Source: a virus. Taken from it: a stretch of DNA of 64,000 bases. Below the pieces are notes generated by a model that searched no databases, was not told the origin of the DNA, and worked only from the letters and a program-made list of their open reading frames with translations. This document shows, piece by piece, positions 44,788 through 61,738 of the stretch (position 1 is the first letter of the stretch; every line of letters starts with the position of its first letter). The DNA lies in IMG/VR virus record IMGVR_UViG_3300009151_000034, positions 1 to 64,000 of that record; one strand, 5' to 3'. Made by a program: the position numbers and the translations under genes.

Positions 44788-45912
44788 TCACACTACCTTC
44801 AGAAGAATTGTATCTTCATTAATACGCTGTTGAATATTATCTGTCTTTTTTAACTCTGTCAAGAGTTTTGTTGCTGCTCTTTTTCCGCCATTTAGGACGG
44901 TAGCAATGTGATCAGCTACCTTACGGCCACCACGAACTGTCATGCTCTTATCTTCGTCATATTTAGTGATGGCAGTGCGATAAACATCCAAGCCACCACG
45001 ATCCAGAGCATAAAAGACTGTCAGTGTCTTATATTTAGTATTTAAGACCCAAAGCTCTTGTGCTCCAATAATCTTCTCGGGTTTGATCGAGGCTACCTTG
45101 AATTCCTTGCTTTCAGTAGCAGGGATAAGAAATTTTAGCTTCTTGTCAACACTAACCGTCTTAGGCTTCCTAGGTTCGCGCATCTTCTTCGTATTAGACG
45201 CAAACCGTTCACAATCAGTCAAAATACTCACATAGAATTTAGCGCGGGCCTTTTTGTTATCATTAGAAAGATTTGCATAACCTTCTACGAGTTGAGCATC
45301 ACAAGACCGTGAAAGAACTTCGGCAGCTTCGTTTGCAATGGGCTGATAAAATGCAGCAATCTTAGAAACCAGAAGAGGCGGAATTTCCTTAGTCTGAAGC
45401 CATTCATACATAGACAAGGTATAACCATTCGCATCGATGGCTTCTTCAAATTCACCAATGAAATCAGAAGCCTTATCACGAATACGATCTTGGATATTAA
45501 CCGCCTTGTCTTCTAGGGCAGCCACATCTTTCCGAAAAGTCAAAGCCTCTGTAACTTTTTCGTTTGCGAAAACCATGCTGCTAGGACCAAGATTAGCACC
45601 ACGGGAAATCATACGAAATATCCAAGCAGCCTGATCAGGAACTCGATTATCTGGAACACTCTTCATCTGTTTCGCCTCTGTGGTTCGGCCTGTATTTGTC
45701 AGATATGTTTCTAGATAATCACGAGCATTTTCGGTATTGCACATATAGCTATACCAAGTCATATTTTTCATACGAGTTAGATTGTCAATAGGATCGTAGG
45801 TGAAAGTCGGTTCATCTCCCATATACTTCTGGTTGATCAGTTGTTGTTCAGTCTTTGTGGGACGAACCTTCTTAACTTTTTTAGCAGTAGCAATTAAGAG
45901 ACGATTGGCCAT
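44788..45912 (-). CDS. Conserved T4-like hypothetical protein
   Basis: KYMGDEP; NIQDRIR; ASIKPEKIIGAQELWVLNTKYK; RINEDTILLKV. Confidence 0.75.
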   Translation of the reverse strand: MANRLLIATAKKVKKVRPTKTEQQLINQKYMGDEPTFTYDPIDNLTRMKNMTWYSYMCNTENARDYLETYLTNTGRTTEAKQMKSVPDNRVPDQAAWIFRMISRGANLGPSSMVFANEKVTEALTFRKDVAALEDKAVNIQDRIRDKASDFIGEFEEAIDANGYTLSMYEWLQTKEIPPLLVSKIAAFYQPIANEAAEVLSRSCDAQLVEGYANLSNDNKKARAKFYVSILTDCERFASNTKKMREPRKPKTVSVDKKLKFLIPATESKEFKVASIKPEKIIGAQELWVLNTKYKTLTVFYALDRGGLDVYRTAITKYDEDKSMTVRGGRKVADHIATVLNGGKRAATKLLTELKKTDNIQQRINEDTILLKVV

Positions 45913-46767: not shown

Positions 46768-47057
46768 ACTCGGGATTCGCCATAAAAATTCTGATATTCT
46801 TCGTCTGTCATAAGAGATTCACATACCGCAAAAAGATCACCATCCTGATACAAAGTCCATACATTATTATTGGCATCAACATGACGGGCGTTGTTCAGAA
46901 TATTATCCCAGGCTTCCCAATACCACTCTTCATCAGGACCATTACCACAAACCTTAGCATCTTCCGTGTCAATGTTCGCCCAATCAAACATGTCAACAAA
47001 ATCTCTCGGGATATAAACACCACGGGAATCGTTCAGTAGAATTTCAATGCCGCTCAT
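46764..47057 (-). CDS. Acidic hypothetical protein
   Basis: RGVYIPRDF...YWEAWD..L...LYQDGDLFA; AGGAG RBS; own promoter TTGACG-17-TACACT at 47167-47139. Confidence 0.65.
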   Translation of the reverse strand: MSGIEILLNDSRGVYIPRDFVDMFDWANIDTEDAKVCGNGPDEEWYWEAWDNILNNARHVDANNNVWTLYQDGDLFAVCESLMTDEEYQNFYGESRV

Positions 47058-47195
47058 TTTAAACTCCTATATGGTTGTGGTGGGTAGCAGGGACCAACCG
47101 TAAAGTCAATCCCTGCTATTGTAATATTTTGTTAGTAAAGTGTATGTGTCCATATTGAAAGCGTCAATTATATAAATACATAAAAGGAGAAAAAC

Positions 47196-47816
47196 ATGAC
47201 ATACACATATCTAATAGGCTGGTCATTATATGATAAATGGTATTATGGGGTTAGGTTTGCAAAAAAATGCGATCCGAAAGAATTATGGCAAACATATTTC
47301 ACATCATCTAAACATGTTAAAGCTTTTCGTAAGTCTTATGGAGAGCCTGATGTTATTGAGATAAGAAAAATATTCTCTTGTCAAGATAAAGCAATTTTGT
47401 GGGAAAATAAAGTTCTTAAAAGATTAGATGTTATACACAAAGATAAGTGGTTGAATAAAACAGATAACATTGCAATACGGTCTACTGAACCTAGAGTGTA
47501 TGGGGCACCATGGAATAAAGGAAAATCAACCGCAAGAACTAAAGAATCTATAGAAAAACAAAAAATCACTATAACAGGAAAAAAACGTGGGCCTTATAAT
47601 ATCTTGGAAACTGATGAAAGATTAGCCTTAAGAGCCAACATTTCAAAATCATTAAAAAATAACCAACGCGCCAAGGGTGTAAAATTTTCCGAGGAAGAAA
47701 AAATAAAACGTAGCGTGGCAAACATTGGTTGTTTCTGGTGGACAAATGGATTAATACAAGTAAAAAGCAAAATTTGTCCACCAGGGTTTGTAAGAGGTAA
47801 ACTTAAGAAACGTTAG
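47196..47816 (+). CDS. Free-standing GIY-YIG/Seg-like homing endonuclease
   Basis: YTYLIGW...WYYGVR...YFTSS...E...WLN, NUMOD-like PWNKGK and WWTNG...PPGFVRG. It is antisense to its neighbours, with TATAAATA at 47171-47178 and an AGGAG RBS. Confidence 0.85.
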   Translation: MTYTYLIGWSLYDKWYYGVRFAKKCDPKELWQTYFTSSKHVKAFRKSYGEPDVIEIRKIFSCQDKAILWENKVLKRLDVIHKDKWLNKTDNIAIRSTEPRVYGAPWNKGKSTARTKESIEKQKITITGKKRGPYNILETDERLALRANISKSLKNNQRAKGVKFSEEEKIKRSVANIGCFWWTNGLIQVKSKICPPGFVRGKLKKR

Positions 47817-48759
47817 CCATTTTAAGTGCTAGATCAAGGGCTTCAATTTTCACATTCCGATTGGTGCCATACCACGCAGAGGTGAGGCGGTTGTCTGCGC
47901 TGCGACCCATAAGATGGTCGGTGGTAAACGTCACTGCGTTGACCGCATTCCACCAGCTACCAGGGGCCATATCCGCACCGGGCTGAGTGTCAAGCACTCC
48001 AAGGGCGATGTTGGCGGTCTTGGATAGTTCCTTCTTCGCCTTATCACCGCCAGCAACCGGAAAGATGCGCTTCATGAAATCAACCACATTCTCGCCAGTG
48101 TATTGCTTTGTGCTGAGAAAAGAAGCCATTTCCTTATACTGTGCGAGTTTGTCAGCAGCAACGCCAAGCATCGATTTTACGTTGTCACCATTGAATTCAC
48201 GGCGATGGCTGATCTTGACAAACCGTTCGACCTTAGAGTTAAGACTGAGAGTCAGAGTGTTGTTACAAACCACGCGGATAGGAGTGAAGCGAACGTCGGT
48301 TGAGAAGCCATACTTATGAAAGTTGGTGAAGTGAAGATAGGATTCGATCTCATCACTGCCGTTGATCGTAAAGCCATCTTTAATCTTCGCCAAGGCCCAT
48401 ACGATCTGACCATCCTTCAGACTACCGGCGGTATGCATTTCCATGTCACCTTCGGCAATAAAATCGTTAAAGAACTCGAAAGCCTCGCTATTCTGAACCG
48501 GATTCCAATCATCAGAAACCACATCAAGAATGCGGTTATCGCTTTGACGAACCAGAGCAGATTGGCCGATGCTGACATTCTTACCGCCAACCTTAGCAAA
48601 AGCAGGAACCTTCTCGACACTCCAATCCAAGCCAGCAGCCTCAAGCATTTGATCGGGAGTAAGATCAGCAGGAACTCGGACACCAAGACCGTGCCAAGGG
48701 GTTTCCCCAACATAAGCCATCTGAGCCTTACCGTTGATCATTTCGATTTCGTGAGCCAT
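47803..48759 (-). CDS. DUF932/DUF945-family protein
   Basis: MAYVGETPWHGLG...AGLDWSVEK...VQNSEAFEFF...TAGSLKDG...TPIRVVCNNTL. Confidence 0.88.
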   Translation of the reverse strand: MAHEIEMINGKAQMAYVGETPWHGLGVRVPADLTPDQMLEAAGLDWSVEKVPAFAKVGGKNVSIGQSALVRQSDNRILDVVSDDWNPVQNSEAFEFFNDFIAEGDMEMHTAGSLKDGQIVWALAKIKDGFTINGSDEIESYLHFTNFHKYGFSTDVRFTPIRVVCNNTLTLSLNSKVERFVKISHRREFNGDNVKSMLGVAADKLAQYKEMASFLSTKQYTGENVVDFMKRIFPVAGGDKAKKELSKTANIALGVLDTQPGADMAPGSWWNAVNAVTFTTDHLMGRSADNRLTSAWYGTNRNVKIEALDLALKMANVS

Positions 48760-48863
48760 TGTTTTAGTATCCTTCACTGTGTTTCGATAAACATGTTATA
48801 GACTGGTTGGAGCAGGAAGTCAACAGGTTTTTTTAGTCTTCGAGATATTTTTTTAAAACTCAC

Positions 48864-49241
48864 TCACTTCTTATATTCTGTTATGGAGCCATCGAGGCGA
48901 AAGACACGGCAGAACACACCGTCTTTTTTTGTAAAGCGACCGCCGTATTCTCTTGGATGGTAGCCATAGATGTCGGGCTGATCTGACCCATCTTCCCAAG
49001 CCCTGAGCCACCTATTACCACAGCAATCACAATCCCATCCGGCTTGAACCCCATCAAAATAGATGCCGACACTTTGAGCACGACGGTCTGCATCAATCTT
49101 ATCACGCGCTTCGATTATCACATAATGACAGACATATTCGTCTACATCAAAACGCCCACCCGAATTGTTTTGATGATATGCCCAGTAAAGAGAAGGCGTT
49201 TCATGGCTAATCTTGGGTGAGATGTGTGTTTCAGTCACCAT
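48864..49241 (-). CDS. Conserved phage hypothetical protein
   Basis: QNNSGGRF...VIIEA...GIYFDGV...DCDCCGNRW. Confidence 0.7.
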   Translation of the reverse strand: MVTETHISPKISHETPSLYWAYHQNNSGGRFDVDEYVCHYVIIEARDKIDADRRAQSVGIYFDGVQAGWDCDCCGNRWLRAWEDGSDQPDIYGYHPREYGGRFTKKDGVFCRVFRLDGSITEYKK

Positions 49242-49255
49242 TTTAAAATTCCTTA

Positions 49256-49468
49256 TTATGCTTCACGGCGAGGATCATACCAGACCTGCATGGTGGTGGG
49301 TTTCTTCCAGGCACCACGGTTGACGTAGGCAGTAGCACGGTCGGCGGCGATGCTCCAATACTTGCGAAGGATCGAGAAGGGGATCACATCATCGCCGTTA
49401 CCGTGGATCATGTTTTGGAAATGGTAGGAACGCGCACCGATGAAGGCGAGGCGGGATTTCTGGTCCAT
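49256..49468 (-). CDS. Early hypothetical protein
   Basis: CAGGAGATAG leader shared with other early genes. Confidence 0.6.
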   Translation of the reverse strand: MDQKSRLAFIGARSYHFQNMIHGNGDDVIPFSILRKYWSIAADRATAYVNRGAWKKPTTMQVWYDPRREA

Positions 49469-49512
49469 GGTCTCTATCTCCTGTCCAATCTCTTTTGTGA
49501 TATATGTTAAAA

Positions 49513-49857
49513 TTAAGACGCTTTAGCAGCCATCTTAGCTTGGGCTTCTTCGTTGAGTTGCGCCCAATATTTCACGATACGCATAACACCGTTGACGTTC
49601 CGAGTCAACCACTGTTCAACCTGCCAGTCTTGCAGTGTGCCGTGTTTAATGAACGTCTTAGCAGTCAAACATCCCTCGCGGGCATCCCCTTTAGTGAACC
49701 CACGGTTGTTCACCATCTTCGCATCATTCTCGGCCTTCTCAGCCTCAGTCTGGCGGCGGAAAAGGGCAAGGCAGGCACGCCCCACGATCTGCATTTTCTT
49801 TTCTTCATTGGCTTCAAGGATCATGCGCTCAAGTGTGTGTTTGGTGATGATCGTCAT
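49513..49857 (-). CDS. Early hypothetical protein
   Basis: Own promoter and AGGAG RBS; ALFRRQTEAEK...NNRGF. Confidence 0.7.
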   Translation of the reverse strand: MTIITKHTLERMILEANEEKKMQIVGRACLALFRRQTEAEKAENDAKMVNNRGFTKGDAREGCLTAKTFIKHGTLQDWQVEQWLTRNVNGVMRIVKYWAQLNEEAQAKMAAKAS

Positions 49858-49906
49858 GTGCTATCTCCTGTCTATGAAAAGAATATAGCCCATCCGCCAA
49901 CCAAAG

Positions 49907-50539
49907 TCAACCGGAAATATCGTAGTCTTCAATCATTTTTTGTGATGCTTCATTGCCAGACACAAGGGCATCACCAGACACCCAGGCATTATCAGACACA
50001 CGGGAATTACCACACACACGGGCATCACCAAACACACAGGCGTCACCAGACACAATGGCATCACCAGACACCCAGGCATCACCATACACACAGGCATCAC
50101 CAGACACCCAGGCAGTATCAGATACACAGGCATCACAATACACACAGGCATAGCCAGACACACAGGCATTACCATACACCCACGCATTATCAGACACAAT
50201 GGCATCACCAAACACACGGGCATCGTCATAGACACGGGCATAGCCATACACACGGGCATTGCCATACACACGGGCATTATCAGACACACAGGCATTGCCA
50301 GACACACGGGCATCGTCATAGACACGGGCATTGCCATACACCATGGCACTACCAGACACACAGGCATTGCCAGACACACGGGCATCGTCATAGACACGGG
50401 CATAGCCATACACACGGGCATCCGTATCGACAAACGCAGAGGCAGAAACATCTGTCGTGTCAGCAACCCATCCACCGCCATTTGAGTGCTGATGGGCGGG
50501 AACAGGGCCATTGCCGTCATTGAAATCATAAGTGGTCAT
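49907..50539 (-). CDS. Hexapeptide-repeat (left-handed beta-helix-like) protein
   Basis: MTTYDFNDGNGPVPAHQHSNGGGWVADT followed by more than 20 (G/D)(N/D/Y)A(R/C/W)V(S/Y) units (18-bp repeat); start 50539 has an AAGGAG RBS. Confidence 0.85.
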   Translation of the reverse strand: MTTYDFNDGNGPVPAHQHSNGGGWVADTTDVSASAFVDTDARVYGYARVYDDARVSGNACVSGSAMVYGNARVYDDARVSGNACVSDNARVYGNARVYGYARVYDDARVFGDAIVSDNAWVYGNACVSGYACVYCDACVSDTAWVSGDACVYGDAWVSGDAIVSGDACVFGDARVCGNSRVSDNAWVSGDALVSGNEASQKMIEDYDISG

Positions 50540-50590
50540 TGTAGTCTCCTTGCTCTCTATAGCCACATAATAGCATATCTACGCCAGATG

Positions 50591-50770
50591 TCAACCGGAA
50601 ATGTAACGTGCCGGGTCAATTTCCTCCGGGCCAATCTCAATATCGTTCTCAGACATCAGATTGGTGATCTTGGCCAAGCGGTCTTGGAGGTAGGCCAGTT
50701 CAGTCACCAACTGACTACGTGTCTTGATGTCAAAGAAAAGATCAAACACGTAGGGAAGATCGTTTGTCAT
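50591..50770 (-). CDS. Small early protein (59 aa)
   Basis: Not in track: MTNDLPYVFDLFFDIKTRSQLVTELAYLQDRLAK...; own promoter and AGGAG RBS. Confidence 0.65.
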   Translation of the reverse strand: MTNDLPYVFDLFFDIKTRSQLVTELAYLQDRLAKITNLMSENDIEIGPEEIDPARYISG

Positions 50771-50837
50771 GCTGTAGGCTCCTGTGTTGATGAGGGCAGT
50801 ATAGCGGATTTTTTCAGATAGTCAAGCAGTTATTTTG

Positions 50838-50972
50838 TCAAATCATAAAAAAAATTGGAAGAAGAAGCGCAAAAATACCAGCCGTCGCAACCGTGGCCAT
50901 AAGTGAGAACCATTCTTGCGCGCCGGTTTCCATGTCCTGATCTGTCAAGCCGTCCTGCGAAATCGTCATCAT
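50838..50972 (-). CDS. Small membrane protein (44 aa)
   Basis: Not in track: MMTISQDGLTDQDMETGAQEWFSLMATVATAGIFALLLPIFFMI; GAGG RBS. Confidence 0.5.
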   Translation of the reverse strand: MMTISQDGLTDQDMETGAQEWFSLMATVATAGIFALLLPIFFMI

Positions 50973-50990
50973 ATTTACTTCCTCTTAAAA

Positions 50991-51236
50991 TTAAAGAAGC
51001 TTCGCGGTAATTACATTGATACTATCATTATTGAACACACTAATCATCGTGGTGTGTCCAGTTTCGAGATGGCTGATCATGATCACATCGCCAACCTTGA
51101 CCATATCTTTCATGCCATTAAAAAACCCGGCAGATGTAACCTCATCATACGTTGCACCCTTGGCGTTATAATACCATGTCGTGAAACCCATGCAGTAGTT
51201 TGCCACGCCCATGTCCCGAATTTTAAAGCTGCTCAT
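50991..51236 (-). CDS. Small early protein
   Basis: Start 51236 (MSSFKIRD) follows a promoter and GAGGA; GFTTWYY...GFFN...GDVI. Confidence 0.65.
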   Translation of the reverse strand: MSSFKIRDMGVANYCMGFTTWYYNAKGATYDEVTSAGFFNGMKDMVKVGDVIMISHLETGHTTMISVFNNDSINVITAKLL

Positions 51237-51313
51237 TGTCTCTGTATCCTCTGTTGATAACAGCATCTTATCAGGTTTCAGCCAAAAGTCAATTGGTTTT
51301 TGGTTTTTATTTG

Positions 51314-51484
51314 TTAATCCATGTCATCGAAAAAATCATAGCCAGCCGTCTCACAGAATTTCCAAGCCGCATCGAAAGCCTCAGACCGATTGCCGATCCA
51401 ACCACGGGTTTCGATCAATTTGCAGTCGGCTTCATCCGCCAGAGTCAGACAATTTCCGAGATAGAATCCGAAGAAGTGTTCCAT
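51314..51484 (-). CDS. Small early protein (56 aa)
   Basis: Not in track: MEHFFGFYLGNCLTLADEADCK...; own promoter and AAGGGA RBS. Confidence 0.65.
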   Translation of the reverse strand: MEHFFGFYLGNCLTLADEADCKLIETRGWIGNRSEAFDAAWKFCETAGYDFFDDMD

Positions 51485-51544
51485 GTCTCTGTATCCCTTG
51501 TTGATAGAAGCATCTTATAGGGTTATGCCGATCATGTCAAGCAT

Positions 51545-51712
51545 TTATTTTGCACTTTTAAGTCCAGAGATTGCACTGAATTCTCCAAGAATAGTTCCCT
51601 TTTCCGTCATGAGAACAGAATCAAACCCTGCGCGGATCATGTGGGCAACCGCCTTTTCCATCGTGATAAAGGATTTGGTGTAGGCAAAGTTCGTAAATTG
51701 CACCAGAAACAT
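51545..51712 (-). CDS. Small early protein (55 aa)
   Basis: Not in track: MFLVQFTNFAYTKSFITMEKAVAHM...; own promoter and AGGGAG RBS. Confidence 0.65.
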   Translation of the reverse strand: MFLVQFTNFAYTKSFITMEKAVAHMIRAGFDSVLMTEKGTILGEFSAISGLKSAK

Positions 51713-51770
51713 CAGGTAGTCTCCCTTGTCGGTAAAAGCATATTATCAGAATCAACAGGATAGTCAAGTC

Positions 51771-52037
51771 TTATTTTGCCATAAATTTCGTAATAATGTC
51801 GAGCATTTCGGGAGAGATTTCAACCACGACACTCTGTTCGTTTCCGTTTTTGAAGGCAATCGTAAGCGCACCGTCATATTTTGAAATGTAGTTGGGGGTC
51901 AAATAGGTCGCCTTGGTGTAGCCTTCGTTGAGCGCCTCGGGATAGAACCGAGCATGTTCGCGGTGTTCAGTTACATTAGCGAACACCTGCAAGTCTTTGA
52001 CAAAGGTGTTTTCGATAACGCGGATGTTGCTGGTCAT
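51771..52037 (-). CDS. Small early protein
   Basis: Start 52037 (MTSNIRV) downstream of its promoter and AAGGGA. Confidence 0.65.
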   Translation of the reverse strand: MTSNIRVIENTFVKDLQVFANVTEHREHARFYPEALNEGYTKATYLTPNYISKYDGALTIAFKNGNEQSVVVEISPEMLDIITKFMAK

Positions 52038-52106
52038 GGTGTGGTATCCCTTGGTTGATGAAGGTATCATATATGAGGTCGAGAATGGAGTCAATCCCTT
52101 ATTTTA

Positions 52107-52319
52107 TTATTTTCGCGCCAACCATTCGGGCATCGTGATATTGGCGTCCTGAACAGTGATAAGGCGTTTCGTCCCTTCATTAACGATCTCATATTCATCA
52201 TCGAGATATTCCACAGTGCAGAGGCTTTTGGGACGAAACTCACCACCCAAAATGCAAAAAGCTTTTGCAGTCTCACGTGAAGGCACAAGGATGGTTTGGA
52301 AGGTCACGGTCTTGGTCAT
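52107..52319 (-). CDS. Small early protein
   Basis: Own promoter and AGGAG RBS; RETAKAF...ITMPEWLA. Confidence 0.65.
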   Translation of the reverse strand: MTKTVTFQTILVPSRETAKAFCILGGEFRPKSLCTVEYLDDEYEIVNEGTKRLITVQDANITMPEWLARK

Positions 52320-52468
52320 ATGGCTATCTCCTGTCTATGAAAAGAATATACAGGGCATCTTGATCCTCGTCAACACTTTTTTTAAAACTTTTTCGATAAA
52401 AAGTTCTTGACCACCTATAAGAATATAGCTATAAGAGCCTCCAACGACAGTTTATATGGAGTTTTGAT

Positions 52469-53371
52469 ATGCCTCGTGGTGTTCCGTCTGCTGGTTTCCG
52501 TCTTACTAAGAGGCGTGCTGAAGGCAATTTTGTCGCAAAGCCTACCAACAAGCCTGTCATGAATAAGATCATGCATGTGGTTCAAATGCCTGTTGTGCAT
52601 GAGACCGACGCGCAAATTGAAGCTAAACTGAATGACCGTTTTGACATTCTCACTTCGATGACCAACGCAGCCATTCGTGGTGATGTGCGTTCTCTGATTG
52701 TTTCCGGTCCTGCGGGGTTGGGAAAAAGCTTTACGGTAGAACAGGCCCTTACTAAGTGGGATCATCGTGGGCTTAACCATACGATTATCAAAGGCTATGT
52801 CCGCACTACTGGTCTTTACCGTCTTCTTTATCAAAATCGTCATCGTGGTCAGGTTTTGGTGTTCGATGACGCTGATGATGTTTTTACAGATGATAAATCG
52901 ATTGGTCTGCTTAAGGCGGTTTGTGATAGCACAAAGAAACGGGTTGTTAGCTATTTGACTGAAGGTGTTCTTATCGATGAAGATAGTGCAACAGCGATTC
53001 CTAAAAAATTCGAATTTGAAGGCACGATCATTTTCATTACCAACTACGATTTTGATGTTATGATTGATCGTGGACATAAGCTTACACCACATTTTCAGGC
53101 TCTTGTTTCCCGTAGTCATTATATTGATCTGGCCATGAAGACTAAGCGTGATTATCTTGTTCGTATTAAACAAGTTATGCGTCTTGGTCTTCTGCGTAAT
53201 CAGGGTCTTGATCAACAAGCAGAATATGATGTGTTAAATTTTATCAACCAAAATATTGAAAGGCTTCGTGAATTGTCTCTGCGAATGGCTATTAAGCTTG
53301 GAACCATCCGCAAGACAACAGGCCATGATTGGGAAAAAACTGCCCTAGTTACTTGCTGCAAAAATTCATGA
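52469..53371 (+). CDS. AAA+ family ATPase
   Basis: Walker A GPAGLGKS, Walker B VLVFDDAD, IIFITN, ALVSRS; own divergent promoter. Confidence 0.85.
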   Translation: MPRGVPSAGFRLTKRRAEGNFVAKPTNKPVMNKIMHVVQMPVVHETDAQIEAKLNDRFDILTSMTNAAIRGDVRSLIVSGPAGLGKSFTVEQALTKWDHRGLNHTIIKGYVRTTGLYRLLYQNRHRGQVLVFDDADDVFTDDKSIGLLKAVCDSTKKRVVSYLTEGVLIDEDSATAIPKKFEFEGTIIFITNYDFDVMIDRGHKLTPHFQALVSRSHYIDLAMKTKRDYLVRIKQVMRLGLLRNQGLDQQAEYDVLNFINQNIERLRELSLRMAIKLGTIRKTTGHDWEKTALVTCCKNS

Positions 53372-53375
53372 AACG

Positions 53376-53409
53376 AAAAAGGGGAGCCATAAAAAGCTCC
53401 CCTTTTTTT
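53376..53409. terminator. Bidirectional intrinsic terminator
   Basis: aaaaa-ggggagc-cataaaaa-gctcccc-ttttttt between convergent genes. Confidence 0.9.
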
Positions 53410-54596: not shown

Positions 54597-55009
54597 GCTG
54601 GTAGTAATCCTGGAAACCCCTTGTTGATAAGTTCGCGTGTAATATTCGGATAAGGTAATTTTTTATCTTTAACAGCCAAAAGAAGTTTTGCATCGGCTTC
54701 AGAAACAGTTTCAAGTAATTCCACGAAAAGTGCTTCACGGCGAAGTTGTTTTAATGTTTGATGACCGTTTTGCACAAAAAGATATAATTTACGAGTTTGA
54801 GTGTATAATGATCCTTCCTGATCCACAAGAGTATTTGGTTTATATGGTGGCGAACCTTCTGGTAAGAGCCAAACTATATTTGGATCAAATGCACCACGGA
54901 TCATTGATTCTAGTGGCGCGCTAAAATTTTGTTTCAAAACCATAATACGTTCATCATCTGTCTGCATCTTCGAAGCTTTTTCAAAGATTTCCGCCAACCC
55001 TAATTTCAT
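54593..55009 (-). CDS. Conserved T4-like hypothetical protein
   Basis: FDPNIVWLLPEGSPPYKP...RKLYLF...RREALFVELLE...KDKKL. Confidence 0.75.
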   Translation of the reverse strand: MKLGLAEIFEKASKMQTDDERIMVLKQNFSAPLESMIRGAFDPNIVWLLPEGSPPYKPNTLVDQEGSLYTQTRKLYLFVQNGHQTLKQLRREALFVELLETVSEADAKLLLAVKDKKLPYPNITRELINKGFPGLLPA

Positions 55010-55395
55010 TATACGAAGTCTCCAATACTTTCGGTTAAATTCTTAAGTTTATGATCCATAAAATACGTCAACAAATTCTTGGCTTTTTTGCCTTCTTGTT
55101 CCGTATAACTATTTACTACTTCATTATATATGTTTTCAGGAATGTTAGCAAGATCAATTAGCTGTTCATTTCTTTTGTAATTTCGCAACATGGTTTCATT
55201 ACAAAACAATTTAGGTTCAGAATGTTTGAGCCACTCCTCTAGTTTTTTCTTGAAAAGTGGTTTTTGTCTTTCTCCAATAACTAAACAATTATCGTTTGAT
55301 AAAATATTAGGAATGCCATCGCTAGTATCACCAGATATGATATGCTCAATCCGATATTTTTCAATTTCTTCTCGTGTCATATATTTTTTTATCAT
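55009..55395 (-). CDS. rnh: RNase H (T4 rnh-type 5' nuclease), C-terminal half
   Basis: HIISGDTSDGIPNILS...RNYKRNEQLIDL..IPE. Confidence 0.85.
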   Translation of the reverse strand: MIKKYMTREEIEKYRIEHIISGDTSDGIPNILSNDNCLVIGERQKPLFKKKLEEWLKHSEPKLFCNETMLRNYKRNEQLIDLANIPENIYNEVVNSYTEQEGKKAKNLLTYFMDHKLKNLTESIGDFV

Positions 55396-55480: not shown

Positions 55481-55981
55481 TCAATCTTTCCTTTGGATTA
55501 AAACATCCTTTACTGGTTGATATATTGCAACATTATCATAGGCCAGTAATTGTATAAAATCGTGATCCCCAGAAAGTATAAGAATTTTTTCCTTGGAAGA
55601 ATACTCCATTACCAATGACGCAATAACATCATCTGCCTCTGCATGTTCAATATCAATAACTGGATATGGAAAATTGACCATGAGTTCATTACGAAGTTTA
55701 TTGAAACATTCGAAAATCATTTTCCAATCTAGTTCAGAGGCTTCTCGGTTCTTTTTACGATTTGCCTTATAATACGGAAAAACTTCTTTACGCCAGTATC
55801 GTTTGCCATCACATGCAATAACAAGCTCACCATATTCTTTTTTAAATTTTGAACGATATGAACGAATCGAATTCAAAACCATATGGCGAATCATATTTTC
55901 TTCAACCTTGGCGTTTTTATGATTGCCAAGTTGAACCATAAGATTTGATAACATAACTTGTGATAAGTCCACAATGATCAT
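55481..55981 (-). CDS. rnh: RNase H (T4 rnh-type 5' nuclease), N-terminal half
   Basis: IIVDLSQ...IRHMVLNS...YWRK..FPYYKANRKK...EADDVIA...ILSGDHDFIQL. Confidence 0.9.
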   Translation of the reverse strand: MIIVDLSQVMLSNLMVQLGNHKNAKVEENMIRHMVLNSIRSYRSKFKKEYGELVIACDGKRYWRKEVFPYYKANRKKNREASELDWKMIFECFNKLRNELMVNFPYPVIDIEHAEADDVIASLVMEYSSKEKILILSGDHDFIQLLAYDNVAIYQPVKDVLIQRKD

Positions 55982-56000: not shown

Positions 56001-56372
56001 TCATCCTCCGTTTTCTGATGTTACGACAATTTTTACTAAATCTGATAAAGTTAATATACCTTCATCATCTTCTTCAAATATATTTTTACACATTTCTTGA
56101 AATGGATGGTGTATTCCATAACTTTTTAATAATAAAGACCTCAAAGCTTCGATTACAAATGCACCATCTTTAATATCTCCATCATCTTCGGCAGGCTCAA
56201 ATCCTGCTATGGAAAGTTGATCAAAAAACTTAGGCATAATCGTTTCGATAGTTTCTTGAATATGGAACTGTTTGACTAGTTCCATATTATCTTCAATTTC
56301 TTCTATCGTTTGAGGACTTTGTGGCTTTGGGTGTTTTTTAGGAAAACTAACTACATTATTAGAGTATGCCAT
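56001..56372 (-). CDS. Hypothetical protein
   Basis: NNVVSFPK...EALRSLLLK...HPFQ; upstream of rnh. Confidence 0.65.
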   Translation of the reverse strand: MAYSNNVVSFPKKHPKPQSPQTIEEIEDNMELVKQFHIQETIETIMPKFFDQLSIAGFEPAEDDGDIKDGAFVIEALRSLLLKSYGIHHPFQEMCKNIFEEDDEGILTLSDLVKIVVTSENGG

Positions 56373-56396: not shown

Positions 56397-57404
56397 TTAT
56401 TTGTCAAAATAGATAATTTCACTGCCAGTTCCCACAAAATTAAAATCATAAATTTTACAACTTGGAGATTTTTTAAGGATGTTTTGAGCAAGTTTTTCTC
56501 TGTCTGAAACTGGAACATAAAAGATAAAAAACCCACCACCACCTGCGCCCAAAAGTTTACCACCAATAGCACCAGACATTATTGCCGTTTCGTAAATGCC
56601 ATCAAAATAATCATTACTAATTTCTTTGGTAACACGTTTTTTATCGTGCCATGCCATATCTAGTAAATTTCCAAAACTATCCACATCACCACGTTCGATA
56701 AAGTCAACAGCCTTTATTGCTTTGTCTCTACCATTAGCAACTAAATTAAACTTATCTTCTTGTAACATGGCTGCCTTTTGATTTTTGAGAATTTCATTAG
56801 CAGATCGGCCAACACCACTATAAACAAGTAAAAGATTTTCGTTAAGCTTTTGAATTGTCTCGGAAGTTATTTTTGGTTTGATAACAGTCACAGATTCATC
56901 GGAATGAAATTTTAAATAATTGAAACCCCCATAAGCAGCAGCATATTGGTCTTGTTTACCGATAGGATATTGGCAACGGTCAATTTCAATTTTACATGCA
57001 GCAGAAGCTAAAATTTCAGAATATTTTATTGGAGTTTTTTTACGATTTTCATTTTCATAAATCATCGTATTAATAAGACCAACGGTGAATGCAGAAGATG
57101 ATCCTAAACCAGTTCCTCTAGCAAGAACATCTGAAATTGAAGCCGTAGTGTATTTTTCACTTGTAACATATTCTTTAAATGTTTCACGAGTAATATCATG
57201 ACGCATTTTATCAATTTCGTCAACAATTTCTATGCTGTCATAAATGTTCCTGAAACCAGAATGCGGAACATTATGAGTCATTACATAAATGTATTTATCA
57301 ATCGTGGCAGAAAAAGCGGCGCCAGAAGACTTCTGATAAAAAGAAGACATATCACTACCACCACTAAAAAAACTTATCCTCAAAGGGGTCTTAGAAATAA
57401 TCAT
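56397..57404 (-). CDS. hddA: D-glycero-alpha-D-manno-heptose 7-phosphate kinase (GHMP family)
   Basis: KTPLRISFFSGGSD; GTGLGSSSA; IGKQDQYAAAYGG; GGKLLGAGGGGF. Confidence 0.88.
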   Translation of the reverse strand: MIISKTPLRISFFSGGSDMSSFYQKSSGAAFSATIDKYIYVMTHNVPHSGFRNIYDSIEIVDEIDKMRHDITRETFKEYVTSEKYTTASISDVLARGTGLGSSSAFTVGLINTMIYENENRKKTPIKYSEILASAACKIEIDRCQYPIGKQDQYAAAYGGFNYLKFHSDESVTVIKPKITSETIQKLNENLLLVYSGVGRSANEILKNQKAAMLQEDKFNLVANGRDKAIKAVDFIERGDVDSFGNLLDMAWHDKKRVTKEISNDYFDGIYETAIMSGAIGGKLLGAGGGGFFIFYVPVSDREKLAQNILKKSPSCKIYDFNFVGTGSEIIYFDK

Positions 57405-58414
57405 TACAAAGTCCTGTATATAAAAGTTTCGGTTTGTTTTTTACGACTTTCTAGTGTTGGATATTGTGCCAAAAGTTGTTTAAGCATCATTTCCCATTGA
57501 TTTTTAATACGATTTATATTATAACGAGAATCGACAAAAATTTTATTGAAATCAATCATATTTTTGTGAAGATTATTTTTATACATTTGAATTGCTGCAT
57601 CCAAGTGGTTTGTAAAAATATTTACATGAACATTATTATTTTGGCTACCATTATACATCATATTAAGACCACCTGATGTTTCTGGCAACGCACCAAAGTT
57701 TGGATGCACACAAATCAAACCAGCAGACATAGCTTCAAGCATAGCGCGACAGGAAGTTTCTAGCCAAATCGAAGGATATGCAAAAATATGAGATTTATTT
57801 AAATGTGTTTTTAAATCGATATTTGGAACAAATCCGTAATATGTAATTTGTGGATGGTTTTTACAACGATCAAAAAGTTTTTCGAATGGAGCATCAGCAG
57901 TATTCCATCCATAAATTTTGAAACTTGAAAACACATCAAGATGAATTTCTGGATGCTTCTTTGCTAATGCTTCAAAAGCAGGAACAAGAATTTCCAAACC
58001 ACGTTGAGGGGTTGATGTGTAAACTAAACGAATTTTACCATCTCCTTCAGTATACCGCAAAAATGGATCAGCGGGTTCGATACCAGATTCTAAAATGATT
58101 GATTTTTCATCATAAGGAAGCCCGTGAATGAGTTGATATCGACCATATTGCCAATTAGAAACAAATACAAATTTATGAATATCTTTAAGAAATGATGGGT
58201 CTTTGAATTTATTGGATTCTGGGTCTTCGGCCAAATCATGTGCCCAAAAAATTCTAATCTTGTCTTGTTCTAATGTTCTTGGTCTAGAACAAATAATTTG
58301 AAAGTTATCAAGTAGTTCTGGGTCCAGCATTGTTGTTAGTTTGCGTTTTGCAATTTCAGTCCCACCGAATGCATTTTGAGAAATTTCGTTCTCTTCAAAA
58401 CCTGCCATAATCAA
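57404..58414 (-). CDS. GT-B fold glycosyltransferase (GT4-like)
   Basis: GGTE; WAHD; YTSTPQRGL; YPSIWLETSCRAMLEAMSAG...GALPET (E-x7-E motif). Confidence 0.88.
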   Translation of the reverse strand: MIMAGFEENEISQNAFGGTEIAKRKLTTMLDPELLDNFQIICSRPRTLEQDKIRIFWAHDLAEDPESNKFKDPSFLKDIHKFVFVSNWQYGRYQLIHGLPYDEKSIILESGIEPADPFLRYTEGDGKIRLVYTSTPQRGLEILVPAFEALAKKHPEIHLDVFSSFKIYGWNTADAPFEKLFDRCKNHPQITYYGFVPNIDLKTHLNKSHIFAYPSIWLETSCRAMLEAMSAGLICVHPNFGALPETSGGLNMMYNGSQNNNVHVNIFTNHLDAAIQMYKNNLHKNMIDFNKIFVDSRYNINRIKNQWEMMLKQLLAQYPTLESRKKQTETFIYRTL

Positions 58415-58422
58415 AACAATCC

Positions 58423-59145
58423 TTATAGAGTATAATTTGATTTTTGTGCATCATTAAAGAACATGCACACAGTTTCATAAGAATAATCATAAAGAGGCTT
58501 TCCGATTATAGAAAGTTTCTTGATGATATCTGGGGTCATCGTAATAATATCACATCCCACATTTTGAGCCTGAACAAAATTATATACTTCTCTGGTTGAA
58601 GCCCAAAGAAATTCTACATTTTTATCAGCGGGAGTTTTCGTATTAATACAATATTTAACTGAATATTCTGGATCAACACCAGCATCAGCAATTCGACCAG
58701 CAAAAATTGAGATAATAGAAGGTGTATTTGTATCAAGATGATCTAGAATCGAAGAAGTTTGAAGTGCAGTAAAAACAGCAGTAACATTGCAACGAATTCC
58801 TTTTTTGCTGATTTTATTAATCAAATCATATGTAGGAACTCGCTTAGTATTCATCACAGGAATTTTAACATAAATTGGATAACCAAATCTTGTTTCCAAA
58901 CCAGCAAGAATTTCAGCCTGTCGAATGATTTCATCATCTTCATCAGCGAATACTTCAAGACTGATGTTTGTATCAGGCCGAATTTCTTTTAGCTTTGGAA
59001 TAATTCTTTCGCAAAAATCCATGTAATTTGTAATACCAGCCGATCTCATAAGAGAAGGATTGGTGGTAAATCCTTTCACTATCGGATTGGCTGCTGCATT
59101 TAAAATTCCATCATAATCTGCACCATCAGCAAAAATTTTAGTCAT
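58423..59145 (-). CDS. tal: Transaldolase (TalC/FSA-type)
   Basis: IFADGA; GFTTNPSL; YVKIP Schiff-base Lys; NVTAVF; SIFAGRIADAG; LWASTRE. Confidence 0.92.
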   Translation of the reverse strand: MTKIFADGADYDGILNAAANPIVKGFTTNPSLMRSAGITNYMDFCERIIPKLKEIRPDTNISLEVFADEDDEIIRQAEILAGLETRFGYPIYVKIPVMNTKRVPTYDLINKISKKGIRCNVTAVFTALQTSSILDHLDTNTPSIISIFAGRIADAGVDPEYSVKYCINTKTPADKNVEFLWASTREVYNFVQAQNVGCDIITMTPDIIKKLSIIGKPLYDYSYETVCMFFNDAQKSNYTL

Positions 59146-59671
59146 TATTTAATTCCTTTATTAGATTCACGGCAGTTAAAATATCTTGCGCGAAAAATGT
59201 TGGTTGAACGTGTTTATATTCATCTGGAGAATAATATTCTTTGCCAATGAAAATAGTGGAAAGATTACTTTTGGCACCACAAACTATATCTTTCCATCTA
59301 TCGCCAATCATATAACTTACACTTGGATGTATATCATAATCTTCAATTAAAGTCAATACCATTCCGTTATTTGGTTTGTAGTTAAAAGATTTTCGATCTA
59401 ATGCACAAATGATATCATCTACGCCCATATCTAAAATTATCTTAGTCATAATTTCGAGCGTTTCATAATTCATTTTTCCATCAAGATGATCTGGTTGATT
59501 GGTAACTACAAATACCATATACCCCATTTTCTTTAGGGTGTCAATCGATTCTTCAGCGTAAGGAAGAATTTCAAATTCTTCAAGAGACCAGGGTGCTGTA
59601 GAAATTCCGGTTTTTCTTGGGACTAACTTATTTATAACACCGTCACGATCAAGAAAAACTGCTTTTACCAT
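59138..59671 (-). CDS. gmhB: D,D-heptose 1,7-bisphosphate phosphatase (HAD IIIA)
   Basis: AVFLDRDGVIN; VVTNQPD; KPNNGM; SYMIGDRWKDI. Confidence 0.88.
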   Translation of the reverse strand: MVKAVFLDRDGVINKLVPRKTGISTAPWSLEEFEILPYAEESIDTLKKMGYMVFVVTNQPDHLDGKMNYETLEIMTKIILDMGVDDIICALDRKSFNYKPNNGMVLTLIEDYDIHPSVSYMIGDRWKDIVCGAKSNLSTIFIGKEYYSPDEYKHVQPTFFAQDILTAVNLIKELNND

Positions 59672-60249
59672 TTTGTCTTCATAATTTGAAGATCAGGATG
59701 AGAAACCACACAATGCCAAACTACTGCTTGGAATGCTTCACTATGTGGTGTAACTCGGGAAGAATTTGGCATAGGGACGACAATAGCAACATCACTGTTT
59801 TGTGCCGCATAACCATCAAATTTTCCTACGATGGATAGAATAGCAGAACCCATTTCTTTAGCATGTTCTATGGCCTTAATCAAATTTACAGAAACATTTT
59901 TTTCTTTGTTCCCACCACCAACCGAAAGAATAATGATGGTATCTTCAACTTCTAGTTTTGATACTTTAAGCCATTCAACAAATATAGATTCAAAACCATC
60001 ATCGTTCGCTCTAGCCGTAAGTTCCGAAACATTATCCGTTGGAGCATAAGTTTCTATACCGCATAACTTACGAAGATCATTGACCATATGACTAGCATTT
60101 GCAGCAGAGCCACCAATACCAAGAACGAAAACTCGGTTGCCATTTTTTTGAGCCACGCGAAGATAATTAACAAATTCTTGGATATCATTTTTGTTAATTT
60201 GTTTAGCGATTTCAATTACTTCTTCTAAGTATGTTGAGATGTGTTGCAT
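59665..60249 (-). CDS. gmhA: Phosphoheptose (sedoheptulose-7-P) isomerase, SIS domain
   Basis: GIGGSAANASHMVNDL; LTARANDDGFESIF; SVGGG; TPHSEAFQ. Confidence 0.85.
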   Translation of the reverse strand: MQHISTYLEEVIEIAKQINKNDIQEFVNYLRVAQKNGNRVFVLGIGGSAANASHMVNDLRKLCGIETYAPTDNVSELTARANDDGFESIFVEWLKVSKLEVEDTIIILSVGGGNKEKNVSVNLIKAIEHAKEMGSAILSIVGKFDGYAAQNSDVAIVVPMPNSSRVTPHSEAFQAVVWHCVVSHPDLQIMKTKW

Positions 60250-60647
60250 AATCTATTCCTTAATTCAGTGCTGCTATATGAATGCAGACGGTCAATATAA
60301 ATGATTTTGATACCAAGTTCTTGGCAAATATCTTCACCAGTTACTTGCGTTCCTTTATATTCACTGCCCAAGTAACGAGTATCAATTTTTGTTGTAGCTA
60401 AAATATTTTCCAAATCACGTTCAGTGTCATATGGAATGATTCGGTCAATGTAATGACATGCATTCAACTGAACATAACGTTCGAATGTAGTTTGCATTGG
60501 TTTGTTTTTTGTTTCGGGGCGGTCAATCGTTGGATCAGTGTGAAGACCTGTAATCAAATAATCACAGGTCTGTTTGCACCTTTGCAACAAAATAACATGC
60601 CCAGGATGAAATAAATCAAAAGCCCCGCATGTAAATCCAATAATCAT
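60225..60647 (-). CDS. Cytidylyltransferase-family nucleotidyltransferase (TagD/HldC-like)
   Basis: GAFDLFHPGH (HxGH); ITGLHTDP; ERY; GSEY; YSSTELR. Confidence 0.88.
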   Translation of the reverse strand: MIIGFTCGAFDLFHPGHVILLQRCKQTCDYLITGLHTDPTIDRPETKNKPMQTTFERYVQLNACHYIDRIIPYDTERDLENILATTKIDTRYLGSEYKGTQVTGEDICQELGIKIIYIDRLHSYSSTELRNRLCNTSQHT

Positions 60648-60664
60648 TTATTATCTCAATACGT

Positions 60665-61054
60665 TCATGTTTCTGGAACCTCTAAAGTTGCCTGACGCGG
60701 AATGAACGCTTGCCGAATTGTCTTAGGACCAAAATATTGTGCCACCAGATGTTCAACAACAGCAGGATTAAATGGCTTGCATGAAAATACGTCAAGATAC
60801 ATTTGATCCAATTCGTTTACGAAATGGCAGCAAATATTGCTAGTCTCGATAAGTTGAACAAGCGTATAACCTGCCTTATTACCATCACCAAAATTAACAA
60901 TCTGTGGCTCACCATACGCAACCATGTCAATGTCTTTAACTAGTTGCTTAGCAAAGTTGTAGATATTATCATAATCTGTGATTGAATTATGATTACATCC
61001 AGCACAATCCATGATGCTATGGTATCCCCAATATTCAGTTTGTTCATCATTCAT
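60665..61054 (-). CDS. speD: Pyruvoyl-dependent decarboxylase, SpeD/AdoMetDC family
   Basis: WGYHSIMD; GYTLVQLIETSNICCHF; YLDVFSCKPF. Confidence 0.85.
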   Translation of the reverse strand: MNDEQTEYWGYHSIMDCAGCNHNSITDYDNIYNFAKQLVKDIDMVAYGEPQIVNFGDGNKAGYTLVQLIETSNICCHFVNELDQMYLDVFSCKPFNPAVVEHLVAQYFGPKTIRQAFIPRQATLEVPET

Positions 61055-61069
61055 ATCATATTCTCCTTT

Positions 61070-61738
61070 TTATTCTGGAATAAAAACTGTGTCAAGTCGA
61101 GTTATTTGTTTGTAACTTTTATAACCAATTGATTTCATTAGTTCTTTAACTTCTTTAACTTTTTTGTAGTCACATTCTAATATAATCATTGGCTTATGTT
61201 TTTCGATGGTTTTTACTGCTCCTTTAATTGCTTTTGGTTCATATCCCTCAAGATCAAATTGAATAAGTTTGACATTTTGGAATGAAAAACTATCCAAAGG
61301 AACAACCGGGATAGTCTGTTCAAAAACATCACCCTCAAAAATTTCAATTTGATTCATGCCACAATTTCCAGGAACTATTGCATTGATTGTTCCTATATTA
61401 TGGGTTTCTCCAAGACCACAATTAAATTTGATGATTCCTGGAATTTGACAATTATTTACCAAACAAAAAAAACTAAGAGGGTCTGGTTCAAAAGTATATA
61501 CATTTTTAAAAAAACTAGTATATAAAAGTGGATACATACCACAATTACCACCAGCCTGAATTACTACTCCATCTTTAATAGGAAATTCTTCACGTAAAAA
61601 TGGTTCGATTTGATGTAACCAATCTGAAGCAATGATACCAAATGTATCAGTATCATCCTTTGGCCACACCCAATGTGTAATATTATGAATTGGTGCATTT
61701 AATATTACACATTGATTGGATAAATTATTGATATTCAT
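61070..61738 (-). CDS. FkbM-family SAM-dependent methyltransferase
   Basis: QAGGNCGMYP; VYTFEPD; LDSF...LIQFDLEGYE...GAVKTIEKHKP. Confidence 0.88.
   Translation of the reverse strand: MNINNLSNQCVILNAPIHNITHWVWPKDDTDTFGIIASDWLHQIEPFLREEFPIKDGVVIQAGGNCGMYPLLYTSFFKNVYTFEPDPLSFFCLVNNCQIPGIIKFNCGLGETHNIGTINAIVPGNCGMNQIEIFEGDVFEQTIPVVPLDSFSFQNVKLIQFDLEGYEPKAIKGAVKTIEKHKPMIILECDYKKVKEVKELMKSIGYKSYKQITRLDTVFIPE

Follow-up and report, generated by a model that had tools for sequence, protein, structure and literature searches.

A recurrent six-gene cluster of a T4-like myovirus predicted to synthesise and transfer a nucleotide-activated alpha-heptose

Which sugar a phage would make with six tightly packed carbohydrate genes, how it would activate that sugar and onto what it would transfer it are the questions raised by positions 56397-60647 of the DNA stretch given above, i.e., the first 64 kb of the IMG/VR virus record IMGVR_UViG_3300009151_000034; this whole stretch of 64,000 nucleotides is referred to as the window. 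The original prediction, made from the window alone, had described a self-contained phage operon for nucleotide-activated heptose synthesis and transfer, with phage DNA, virion proteins or the host surface as candidate acceptors. Our analysis points to a conserved gene set with a probable heptose pathway of hybrid make-up, arranged around a glycosyltransferase that appears to be an old core gene of the phage clade, and the acceptor is tentatively sought among proteins.

All six open reading frames (ORFs) were found on the minus strand as predicted, in the order nucleotidyltransferase, GmhA-like isomerase, GmhB-like phosphatase, transaldolase, GT4 glycosyltransferase and HddA-like kinase. Four of the junctions are overlaps, of 25, 7, 8 and 1 nt, and at the fifth there is a gap of 8 nt. 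When IMG/VR was scanned with the kinase as query, 65 loci were obtained, 38 of them with all six genes; 32 of these were distinct, and each of the 32 showed the identical gene order. A small ORF, rnh and PhoH come after the six genes, and in most cases an S-adenosylmethionine (SAM) decarboxylase gene comes before them. Median identity to the window proteins was 67% for GT4, 61% for GmhA, 59% for the nucleotidyltransferase, 53% for HddA, 52% for the transaldolase and 49% for GmhB, with 67% for the N-domain of rnh and 68% for PhoH as comparison values. The six-gene set is conserved far beyond chance, and the co-occurrence that the original prediction had proposed to survey is thereby established. 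Minimal variants (L062-L064) keep just the nucleotidyltransferase, GT4 and HddA, which links these three functions to one another.

The source genome of 149,097 bp has direct terminal repeats, is rated 100% complete by CheckV and has a GC content of 37%. The major capsid protein shares 62-66% identity with its counterparts in Stenotrophomonas phage DLP_6, the Sinorhizobium phages phiM12, M7, M19 and N3 and Pelagibacter phage Mosig, and the genome encodes a baseplate hub, gp32, gp59, rnh and PhoH of T4 type. By this gene content, the virus is a T4-like myovirus of the phiM12/Cr30/DLP6-related branch, in agreement with the phage origin assumed at the outset; a DNA-level similarity search against the phage collection gave no match. 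The description as a self-contained operon stands as far as the packing of the six genes is concerned, but the cluster is unbounded and forms part of a tight co-directional array of more than 10 kb. No convincing promoter or terminator was seen at the cluster edges, and promoter and terminator scans, being at chance level, delimit no operon. The sequence TATAAATA is present in one copy inside gmhB and totals 14 copies in the window versus 8 expected.

The NCBIfam scores of all six proteins lie under the curated equivalog cut-offs, so that these are divergent family members; among 29-47 diverged orthologs, however, their catalytic motifs vary little or not at all. The kinase (56397..57404, 335 aa), comprising N- and C-terminal GHMP domains, had its best NCBIfam match in NF049969 HddA (154 bits, cut-off 600) and almost full-length PDB matches to WcbL (4usm, 3.5e-37), Campylobacter jejuni HddA (4n3o, 1.3e-34) and 3k85 (4e-32). 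With the motifs GLGSSSA and GAGGGGF conserved in 47 orthologs, it is proposed to be a D-glycero-D-manno-heptose-7-phosphate 1-kinase yielding the alpha anomer. The SIS-domain protein (59665..60249, 194 aa), a putative sedoheptulose-7-phosphate isomerase, matched PF13580 (SIS_2) and TIGR00441 (gmhA); its top 13 PDB matches were phosphoheptose isomerases (1tk9, 5.9e-11), DiaA matching weakly, and the motifs GGSAxNASH..NDL and TPHSE..WH are conserved across its orthologs. The HAD-IIIA phosphatase (59138..59671, 177 aa), which matched Pfam HAD families, NF006506 and TIGR00213 (GmhB), retrieved from the PDB exclusively GmhB, i.e., D,D-heptose 1,7-bisphosphate phosphatases. All four of its HAD motifs (DRDGV, TNQP, YKPNNGM and GDRWKD) are conserved, and the Cys-rich zinc loop is absent.

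The transaldolase (58423..59145, 240 aa; PF00923, 1.5e-34) is of the small TalC/Staphylococcus type, scoring 253 bits against TIGR02134 (cut-off 282) versus only 65 bits against TIGR00875 (fsa_talC_mipB), the family to which we take cyanophage talC to belong. Compared with the Thermoplasma and Thermotoga enzymes (1vpx, 3s0c), the D, the E of SLEV, the Schiff-base K of VKIP, N.T, the F of SIFAGR and S.R are present; on alignment, this residue set is the signature of a transaldolase and not that of a fructose-6-phosphate aldolase (Tyr, Gln). In 32 of 32 loci, the gene lies between gmhB and the glycosyltransferase gene. This embedding, together with the TIGR02134 type, supports a dedicated supply of sedoheptulose-7-phosphate, and we propose the transaldolase as the supplier for the cluster.

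The HxGH (cytidylyltransferase-like) nucleotidyltransferase (60225..60647, 140 aa; PF01467, 5.8e-13) is of ambiguous subfamily. NCBIfam and PHROGs favour domain II of RfaE (rfaE_dom_II as best match with 76 bits at a cut-off of 181.5, TagD with 59.5 bits; phrog_7878 with 128 bits), whereas the PDB profile search favours ethanolamine-phosphate and glycerol-3-phosphate cytidylyltransferases, ranking ethanolamine-phosphate cytidylyltransferase (ECT) first, followed by TagD, the HldC-like 5x9q and 3glv. Across 26-32 orthologs, the motifs FDLxHxGH and RxHxYSSxELR do not vary. The enzyme is without the Arg of STTR5, a motif that marks NTP-promiscuous heptose nucleotidyltransferases (PMC11573728). 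In the complete genome, no match was obtained to PF00483 for an HddC-type guanylyltransferase (control positive in 14 of 14 genomes), to PF00294 for a PfkB-family heptose-7-phosphate kinase or to PF01370 for an HldD/GmhD C6 epimerase, which leaves the HxGH enzyme as the only candidate activator.

Taken as a whole, the enzyme set suggests a hybrid pathway, in which the GHMP kinase of the alpha route is combined with an HxGH nucleotidyltransferase of TagD/ECT/RfaE-II type in the place of HddC. The claim of a whole route from central metabolism to nucleotide-heptose and its transfer holds in that the set is coherent from fructose-6-phosphate and erythrose-4-phosphate onwards; the route is not the textbook one, as HxGH replaces HddC. 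Genes, families, motifs and gene order, as well as the position and antiquity of the glycosyltransferase, are read from the sequences, and from these the substrates, products, anomer, nucleotide and acceptor named in the following are predicted. The transaldolase would convert host fructose-6-phosphate and erythrose-4-phosphate to sedoheptulose-7-phosphate, which the GmhA-like isomerase would turn into D-glycero-D-manno-heptose-7-phosphate; the HddA-like kinase would phosphorylate C1 to give the alpha anomer, and the GmhB-like phosphatase would take off the 7-phosphate. The HxGH enzyme would then form NDP-D-glycero-alpha-D-manno-heptose, with ADP or CDP as the nucleotide instead of the textbook GDP. 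A retaining EX7E glycosyltransferase of GT4 requires an alpha-linked donor, which fits the HddA-type kinase, and ADP- or CDP-D-glycero-alpha-D-manno-heptose is the donor that we infer; since a C6 epimerase is missing, the D,D-heptose is expected. The GT4 enzyme would pass the heptose on in alpha linkage, and an FkbM-family enzyme encoded near the cluster in the source genome only may also O-methylate the sugar. For four independent enzyme families of the set, the best or only characterised relatives are heptose-pathway enzymes, and the pathway part of the reading, taken alone, is considered quite probable.

The glycosyltransferase (57404..58414; PF00534, PF13692) measures 336 aa from a TTG codon and 334 aa in the public gene call, which agrees with ATG at 58408 as the probable start. 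Its AlphaFold2 model (pLDDT 96) has BshA, TarM, GtfA, SdgB, HepE, PglA and MshA as Foldseek neighbours, with E-values of 1e-12 to 1e-9 to BshA, TarM, GtfA, MshA and PimA; a sequence search against the PDB gave no match. In a set of 85 sequences, conservation of the two Glu residues of the EX7E motif (E219...E227) reaches 90% or more. Judged from the model, the protein is a retaining GT-B fold enzyme of CAZy family GT4. A 351-aa ORF elsewhere in the genome (92125-93180, minus strand) showed a very weak match to Glycos_transf_1 (13.7 bits); it was rejected as a second glycosyltransferase, the match having no Pfam support on direct scan.

The cluster is widespread, to judge from the relatives of its glycosyltransferase, which number 2861 at 90% clustering (E<=0.001) and form 271 clusters when grouped at 50% identity (E<=1e-30). 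Orthologs of 41-44% identity at more than 90% coverage were found by tblastn in DLP_6, Cr30, phiM12, M7, M19, N3, OspM_OC and RHph_I1_18. The gene order in phiM12 and RHph_I1_18 is glutaredoxin (nrdC), glycosyltransferase, a gene here called gene X, small ORF and rnh, with phoH further on, and sugar-synthesis genes are absent there; metagenomic contigs of the P0248 relative, with glycosyltransferase, small ORF and rnh, likewise carry no heptose genes. In Cr30, the glycosyltransferase is accompanied by an epimerase, HddA and GmhA. Upstream of the DLP6 glycosyltransferase (L073:4675-6728), a Methyltransf_23 enzyme, an annotated GT-A enzyme and a protein matching GT29 (sialyltransferase-like) are encoded, which suggests an oligosaccharide-building set in that phage. 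Matching rnh and PhoH in its median identity, the glycosyltransferase appears to be as constrained as replication genes. We conclude from these gene comparisons that it is probably an old, vertically kept core gene of the clade around which sugar-supply genes have accreted, and not an add-on of the pathway. The donor would then probably differ among lineages, and the acceptor is likely to be the constant.

Four relatives (P0132, P0153, P0163 and P0234) are GT4 homologs of about 690 aa, in which an intein with Hint and LAGLIDADG domains sits between Ser and Cys of ETS|C in the EX7E motif. Inteins typically occupy highly conserved sites of important proteins; an intein within a glycosyltransferase is unusual.

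As to the acceptor, the members of the glycosyltransferase clade infect very different hosts and several of them have no sugar genes, which argues for a clade-wide acceptor instead of a host-specific O-antigen. By analogy with other viral systems, we take the cluster for a phage-autonomous glycosylation module in which the heptose pathway serves such a clade-wide acceptor; a protein, be it of the virion, otherwise phage-made or conserved, is the leading guess, held with somewhat less than even confidence. The support is indirect: GtfA and SdgB, two of the closest folds to the enzyme, glycosylate proteins at oxygen. The enzyme itself is soluble and near-neutral (family median isoelectric point 6.1) and has no transmembrane segment; nor is there a membrane segment in any other protein of the cluster. 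A bacterial relative, P0211, is encoded between two TPR+GT41 (OGT-like) proteins, and four relatives are GT4::GT41 fusions, one of them on a eukaryote-like contig with Arf/Ras, leishmanolysin and START-domain genes; the GT41-linked relatives P0211 and P0176 are on contigs L083 and L082.

Several points weigh against this assignment. The GT41 association is limited to distant cellular relatives of 35-45% identity, and the fold neighbours span small-molecule, teichoic-acid, lipid-linked and protein acceptors, so that the fold names no acceptor. The gene lies among early and replication genes and, unlike its analogues in mycobacteriophages, has no structural genes next to it. On the pathway side, the isomerase has an Asp at the position aligned to the catalytic Glu65 of the Escherichia coli enzyme, with an NCBIfam score far under the cut-off, and the nucleotidyltransferase is closer to CTP:phospho-alcohol cytidylyltransferases (ECT, TagD) than to solved HldC, so that its substrate is taken from context. 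Throughout the cluster, functions are predicted from family membership. DLP6, a carrier of a glycosyltransferase ortholog, is listed with restriction-resistant DNA in a review (PMC8228603). For phiM12, Cr30 and DLP6, the literature searched described neither glycosylation of virion proteins nor heptose genes of established function. To our knowledge, no glycosylated protein has been described for phages of the phiM12/Cr30/DLP6-like clade. In its fullest form, the proposal is that a large clade of T4-like phages, comprising the cultured phiM12, Cr30 and DLP6 as well as abundant uncultured relatives, has a core glycosylation system of its own, in which an ancient retaining GT4 decorates a phage-made macromolecule, likely a virion or other phage protein. 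In the sub-clade of the present virus, the sugar would be an alpha-linked heptose made from central metabolites and sometimes methylated or otherwise tailored; the HxGH enzyme would be a hitherto undescribed type of alpha-heptose-1-phosphate nucleotidyltransferase, whose product, ADP- or CDP-alpha-heptose, has no known cellular occurrence. This combination is regarded as possible but doubtful.

Remodelling of the host envelope, by which the GT4 would add heptose to a lipid-linked intermediate or to an intermediate of the lipopolysaccharide (LPS) core, capsule or exopolysaccharide (EPS), is the best surviving alternative, and on balance a rather unlikely one. Receptors would thereby be masked, with superinfection exclusion or reduced adsorption of progeny to debris as the benefit, and the synthesis of LPS, capsule and EPS is the typical role of GT4 enzymes. 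The glycosyltransferase is annotated at the source as an 'RfaG'/LPS glucosyltransferase-type enzyme, and its best structural neighbour among viral proteins is of that type too; cyanophage clusters with HddA-like kinases lie among capsule- and LPS-type genes, and for pelagimyophages and cyanophages the presence of rfaE, glycosyltransferases and similar LPS-type genes has been read in this way (PMC7029224). This is difficult to reconcile with the syntenic orthologs (41-44% identity) in phages whose hosts (Sinorhizobium, Rhizobium, Caulobacter, Ochrobactrum and Stenotrophomonas) bear unrelated glycans on their surfaces, and with a glycosyltransferase that shows the conservation of a replication gene and serves as an intein target. 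In family scans, the surroundings of the cluster showed no gene for a flippase, a polymerase or a ligase, and the lack of membrane segments noted above points in the same direction.

Alternatively, the cluster might make no heptose glycoconjugate at all, the enzymes acting on another sugar phosphate (e.g., a pentose or hexose, by a route resembling the arabinose pathway of phages), the product being a small-molecule glycoside, or the transaldolase serving as a pentose-phosphate booster. The sub-cut-off scores of all six proteins and the resemblance of the nucleotidyltransferase to CTP:phospho-alcohol transferases leave room for this, as do the small-molecule GT4 enzymes (BshA, MshA, SenB and sucrose-phosphate synthase) among the closest folds. 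Phage transaldolases are also commonly read as pentose-phosphate auxiliary genes. Isomerase, kinase and phosphatase, however, point independently to heptose enzymes, the isomerase being of the GmhA/DiaA SIS_2 type and not of the KdsD/API type; and the transaldolase, invariably embedded between gmhB and the glycosyltransferase gene, belongs to another subfamily than TIGR00875. Such a non-heptose product is therefore judged improbable. An arabinose-type route was set aside on account of the GmhA/SIS_2-type isomerase and the HddA-type kinase.

The remaining candidate is DNA hypermodification, i.e., transfer of heptose onto a hydroxylated base so as to block restriction or CRISPR. The original prediction had regarded it as consistent with the position of the cluster among rnh and other DNA-metabolism genes, and family scans of the neighbours confirmed this setting: rnh, nrdC and phoH are found at the locus, and dCMP deaminase, UvsX and DNA polymerase in addition in relatives. 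Precedents exist, as a metagenomic phage cluster adds one or two heptoses to 5-hydroxymethylcytosine (5hmC) (bioRxiv 10.1101/2023.12.21.572611), and RB69 and DLP3 arabinosylate 5-hydroxycytosine (5hoC) by means of an isomerase, a kinase, a GmhB-like HAD protein, a nucleotidyltransferase and an MshA-like GT4 (PMC13326640); the restriction resistance listed for DLP6 DNA would also fit. The proposed check of the complete genome for a dCMP/dUMP hydroxymethylase or TET/JBP gene was run and none matched. There were no matches to PF00303, PF12851, PF00145, PF01702 or PF13640, covering thymidylate synthase (TS) homologs, TET/JBP, C5 methylases, tRNA-guanine transglycosylase and 2OG-Fe(II) oxygenases, respectively, although the PF12851 search taken alone is weak, its control being positive in no control genome. 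Thymidylate is supplied by an ordinary ThyX in the source genome; phiM12 and Cr30 have only a high-scoring canonical ThyA, and DLP6 has no TS homolog. Five more cluster-bearing contigs, which are fragments, gave no match to a handle-making enzyme. The complete genome of a relative with the same cluster (G002, 167,756 bp) holds a divergent TS-like ORF (L077:1417-2112, about 230 aa; PF00303, 44 bits), which could be a hydroxymethylase-type enzyme there and has no counterpart in the source genome. The glycosyltransferase family is near-neutral in charge, and T4 beta-glucosyltransferase was absent among the top 40-50 matches listed in the PDB and viral fold searches. The DNA of phage N3, which carries an ortholog of the glycosyltransferase, co-migrates with lambda DNA in two-dimensional pulsed-field gel electrophoresis and was judged unmodified (PMC5646251). 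With no hydroxyl-handle enzyme matched in the complete genome and N3 DNA judged unmodified, phage DNA is a very improbable acceptor, and this part of the original prediction is not upheld.

With protein glycosylation retained as the preferred reading, the neighbouring genes can be considered. Directly upstream of the nucleotidyltransferase gene, a SAM-decarboxylase-like (pyruvoyl) protein is encoded (60665..61054, minus strand; PF02675, 1e-19; phrog_3125). A gene of this kind precedes the nucleotidyltransferase in 23 of the 32 full loci with a median identity of 66% and is thus conserved in most relatives; a connection to the heptose genes would be hypothetical. It is preceded by the gene of the FkbM-family methyltransferase (61070..61738, minus strand; PF05050, 5e-12; TIGR01444; phrog_8156), a possible candidate for O-methylation of the sugar. 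No ortholog of it was found in the 65 IMG/VR loci, so that, among the loci examined, it is particular to the source genome; FkbM::GT-B fusions occur among viral proteins. A further methyltransferase of the Methyltransf_23 type, the Pfam family of the enzyme beside the DLP6 glycosyltransferase, is encoded at genome positions 78033-78677 (minus strand), near a gene with a gp53-like tail-fibre C-domain.

On the other side of the cluster, a small acidic conserved ORF of 123 aa (56001..56372, minus strand) lies between HddA and rnh. It belongs to the gene backbone, following HddA in nearly all loci; family scans gave no match, and phiM12_259 and RHph_101, which occupy the same position, matched weakly. 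The phrog_11903 protein of 374 aa referred to as gene X (44788..45912, minus strand; 2.5e-55) is located 11 kb from the cluster. Homologs found by tblastn and blastp (1e-18 to 1e-39) adjoin the glycosyltransferase gene in phiM12, RHph_I1_18 and some IMG/VR loci, and in Cr30 the homolog is two genes after it. The AlphaFold2 model of gene X (pLDDT 75) consists of a helical N-terminal part, a basic linker and a small beta C-terminal domain; with no Pfam family, no Atlas match and no Foldseek match in the PDB, it offers no functional clue.

The T4-type rnh/FEN gene is split in the source genome into an N-domain (55481-55981) and a C-terminal part (55009-55395), both on the minus strand, with 85 nt of AT-rich sequence between them that includes a promoter-like site; in phiM12 and metagenomic relatives it is a single ORF. 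In a 97%-identical relative (L008), the halves lie about 1.2 kb apart, suggesting that a mobile element has entered between them there. In the window, the region 47000-53400 reaches a GC content of 0.47, compared with 0.33-0.39 around it, and has ORFs on both strands, including a homing-endonuclease-like gene (47196-47816, plus strand); it breaks the replication array between PhoH and gene X.

Heptose chemistry and the occurrence of heptose enzymes in viruses were already known; the enzyme combination, the embedded transaldolase and the probable core status of the glycosyltransferase are new. If the preferred reading is true, the cluster represents a new enzymatic way of activating alpha-heptose, the phage transaldolase is a supplier of a sugar precursor and not a pentose-phosphate booster, and glycosylation is among the backbone functions conserved in a major T4-like lineage. 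Orthologs of the glycosyltransferase are present in cultured, genetically tractable phages, namely Cr30 (Caulobacter), phiM12 and N3 (Sinorhizobium) and DLP6 (Stenotrophomonas), which makes the acceptor question directly testable at the bench.

Among known systems, the GDP-D-glycero-alpha-D-manno-heptose pathway (GmhA, HddA, GmhB, HddC) of the Aneurinibacillus thermoaerophilus S-layer and of the capsules of C. jejuni and Burkholderia pseudomallei (WcbL) shares with the phage cluster a GmhA-like isomerase, an HddA/WcbL-like GHMP kinase, a HAD-IIIA GmhB-like phosphatase and the lack of a C6 epimerase. The phage cluster differs from it in having the HxGH enzyme for HddC, its own transaldolase and low identity to the solved enzymes. 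To the ADP-heptose pathway (HldE/HldC), the likeness lies in the monodomain HxGH nucleotidyltransferase with rfaE_dom_II as its best NCBIfam match, whereas the phage kinase is of GHMP and not PfkB type, HldD and the STTR5 Arg are missing, and the transferase is a retaining GT4 instead of an inverting GT9 heptosyltransferase. NDP-heptose biosynthetic enzymes have been reported in viruses (Tang et al. 2024), their role being given as unknown in the summary in PMC11573728.

Within the same T4-like clade, the Cr30 locus (glutaredoxin, UDP-glucose 4-epimerase, glycosyltransferase, HddA and GmhA) is similar in its glycosyltransferase (42% identity), HddA (38%) and GmhA (34%) and in the adjoining nrdC-type glutaredoxin; it is without GmhB, HxGH nucleotidyltransferase and transaldolase and has the epimerase instead. 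In the literature searched, this locus appears as annotation only, without a functional study. The clusters for heptosyl-5hmC ('contig 53') and for the arabinosyl-5hoC of RB69 and DLP3 have in common with the present one isomerase/kinase functions, a HAD phosphatase, a nucleotidyltransferase, an MshA/BshA-like GT-B enzyme and the location among early genes, contig 53 comprising a HAD/APH kinase-phosphatase, a cytidylyltransferase-type enzyme and a GT-B enzyme (bioRxiv 10.1101/2023.12.21.572611). These DNA-glycosylation clusters are, however, always accompanied by a hydroxyl-handle enzyme (methylase plus TET, or a TS homolog), of which none was detected in the source genome. Although the phage genes are not beside structural genes and the likeness is one of analogy and not homology, the cluster also resembles the autonomous virion glycosylation of chloroviruses, mimiviruses and mycobacteriophages (see also PMC4691112), in which a viral sugar-nucleotide pathway, glycosyltransferases and methyltransferases operate independently of host glycans.

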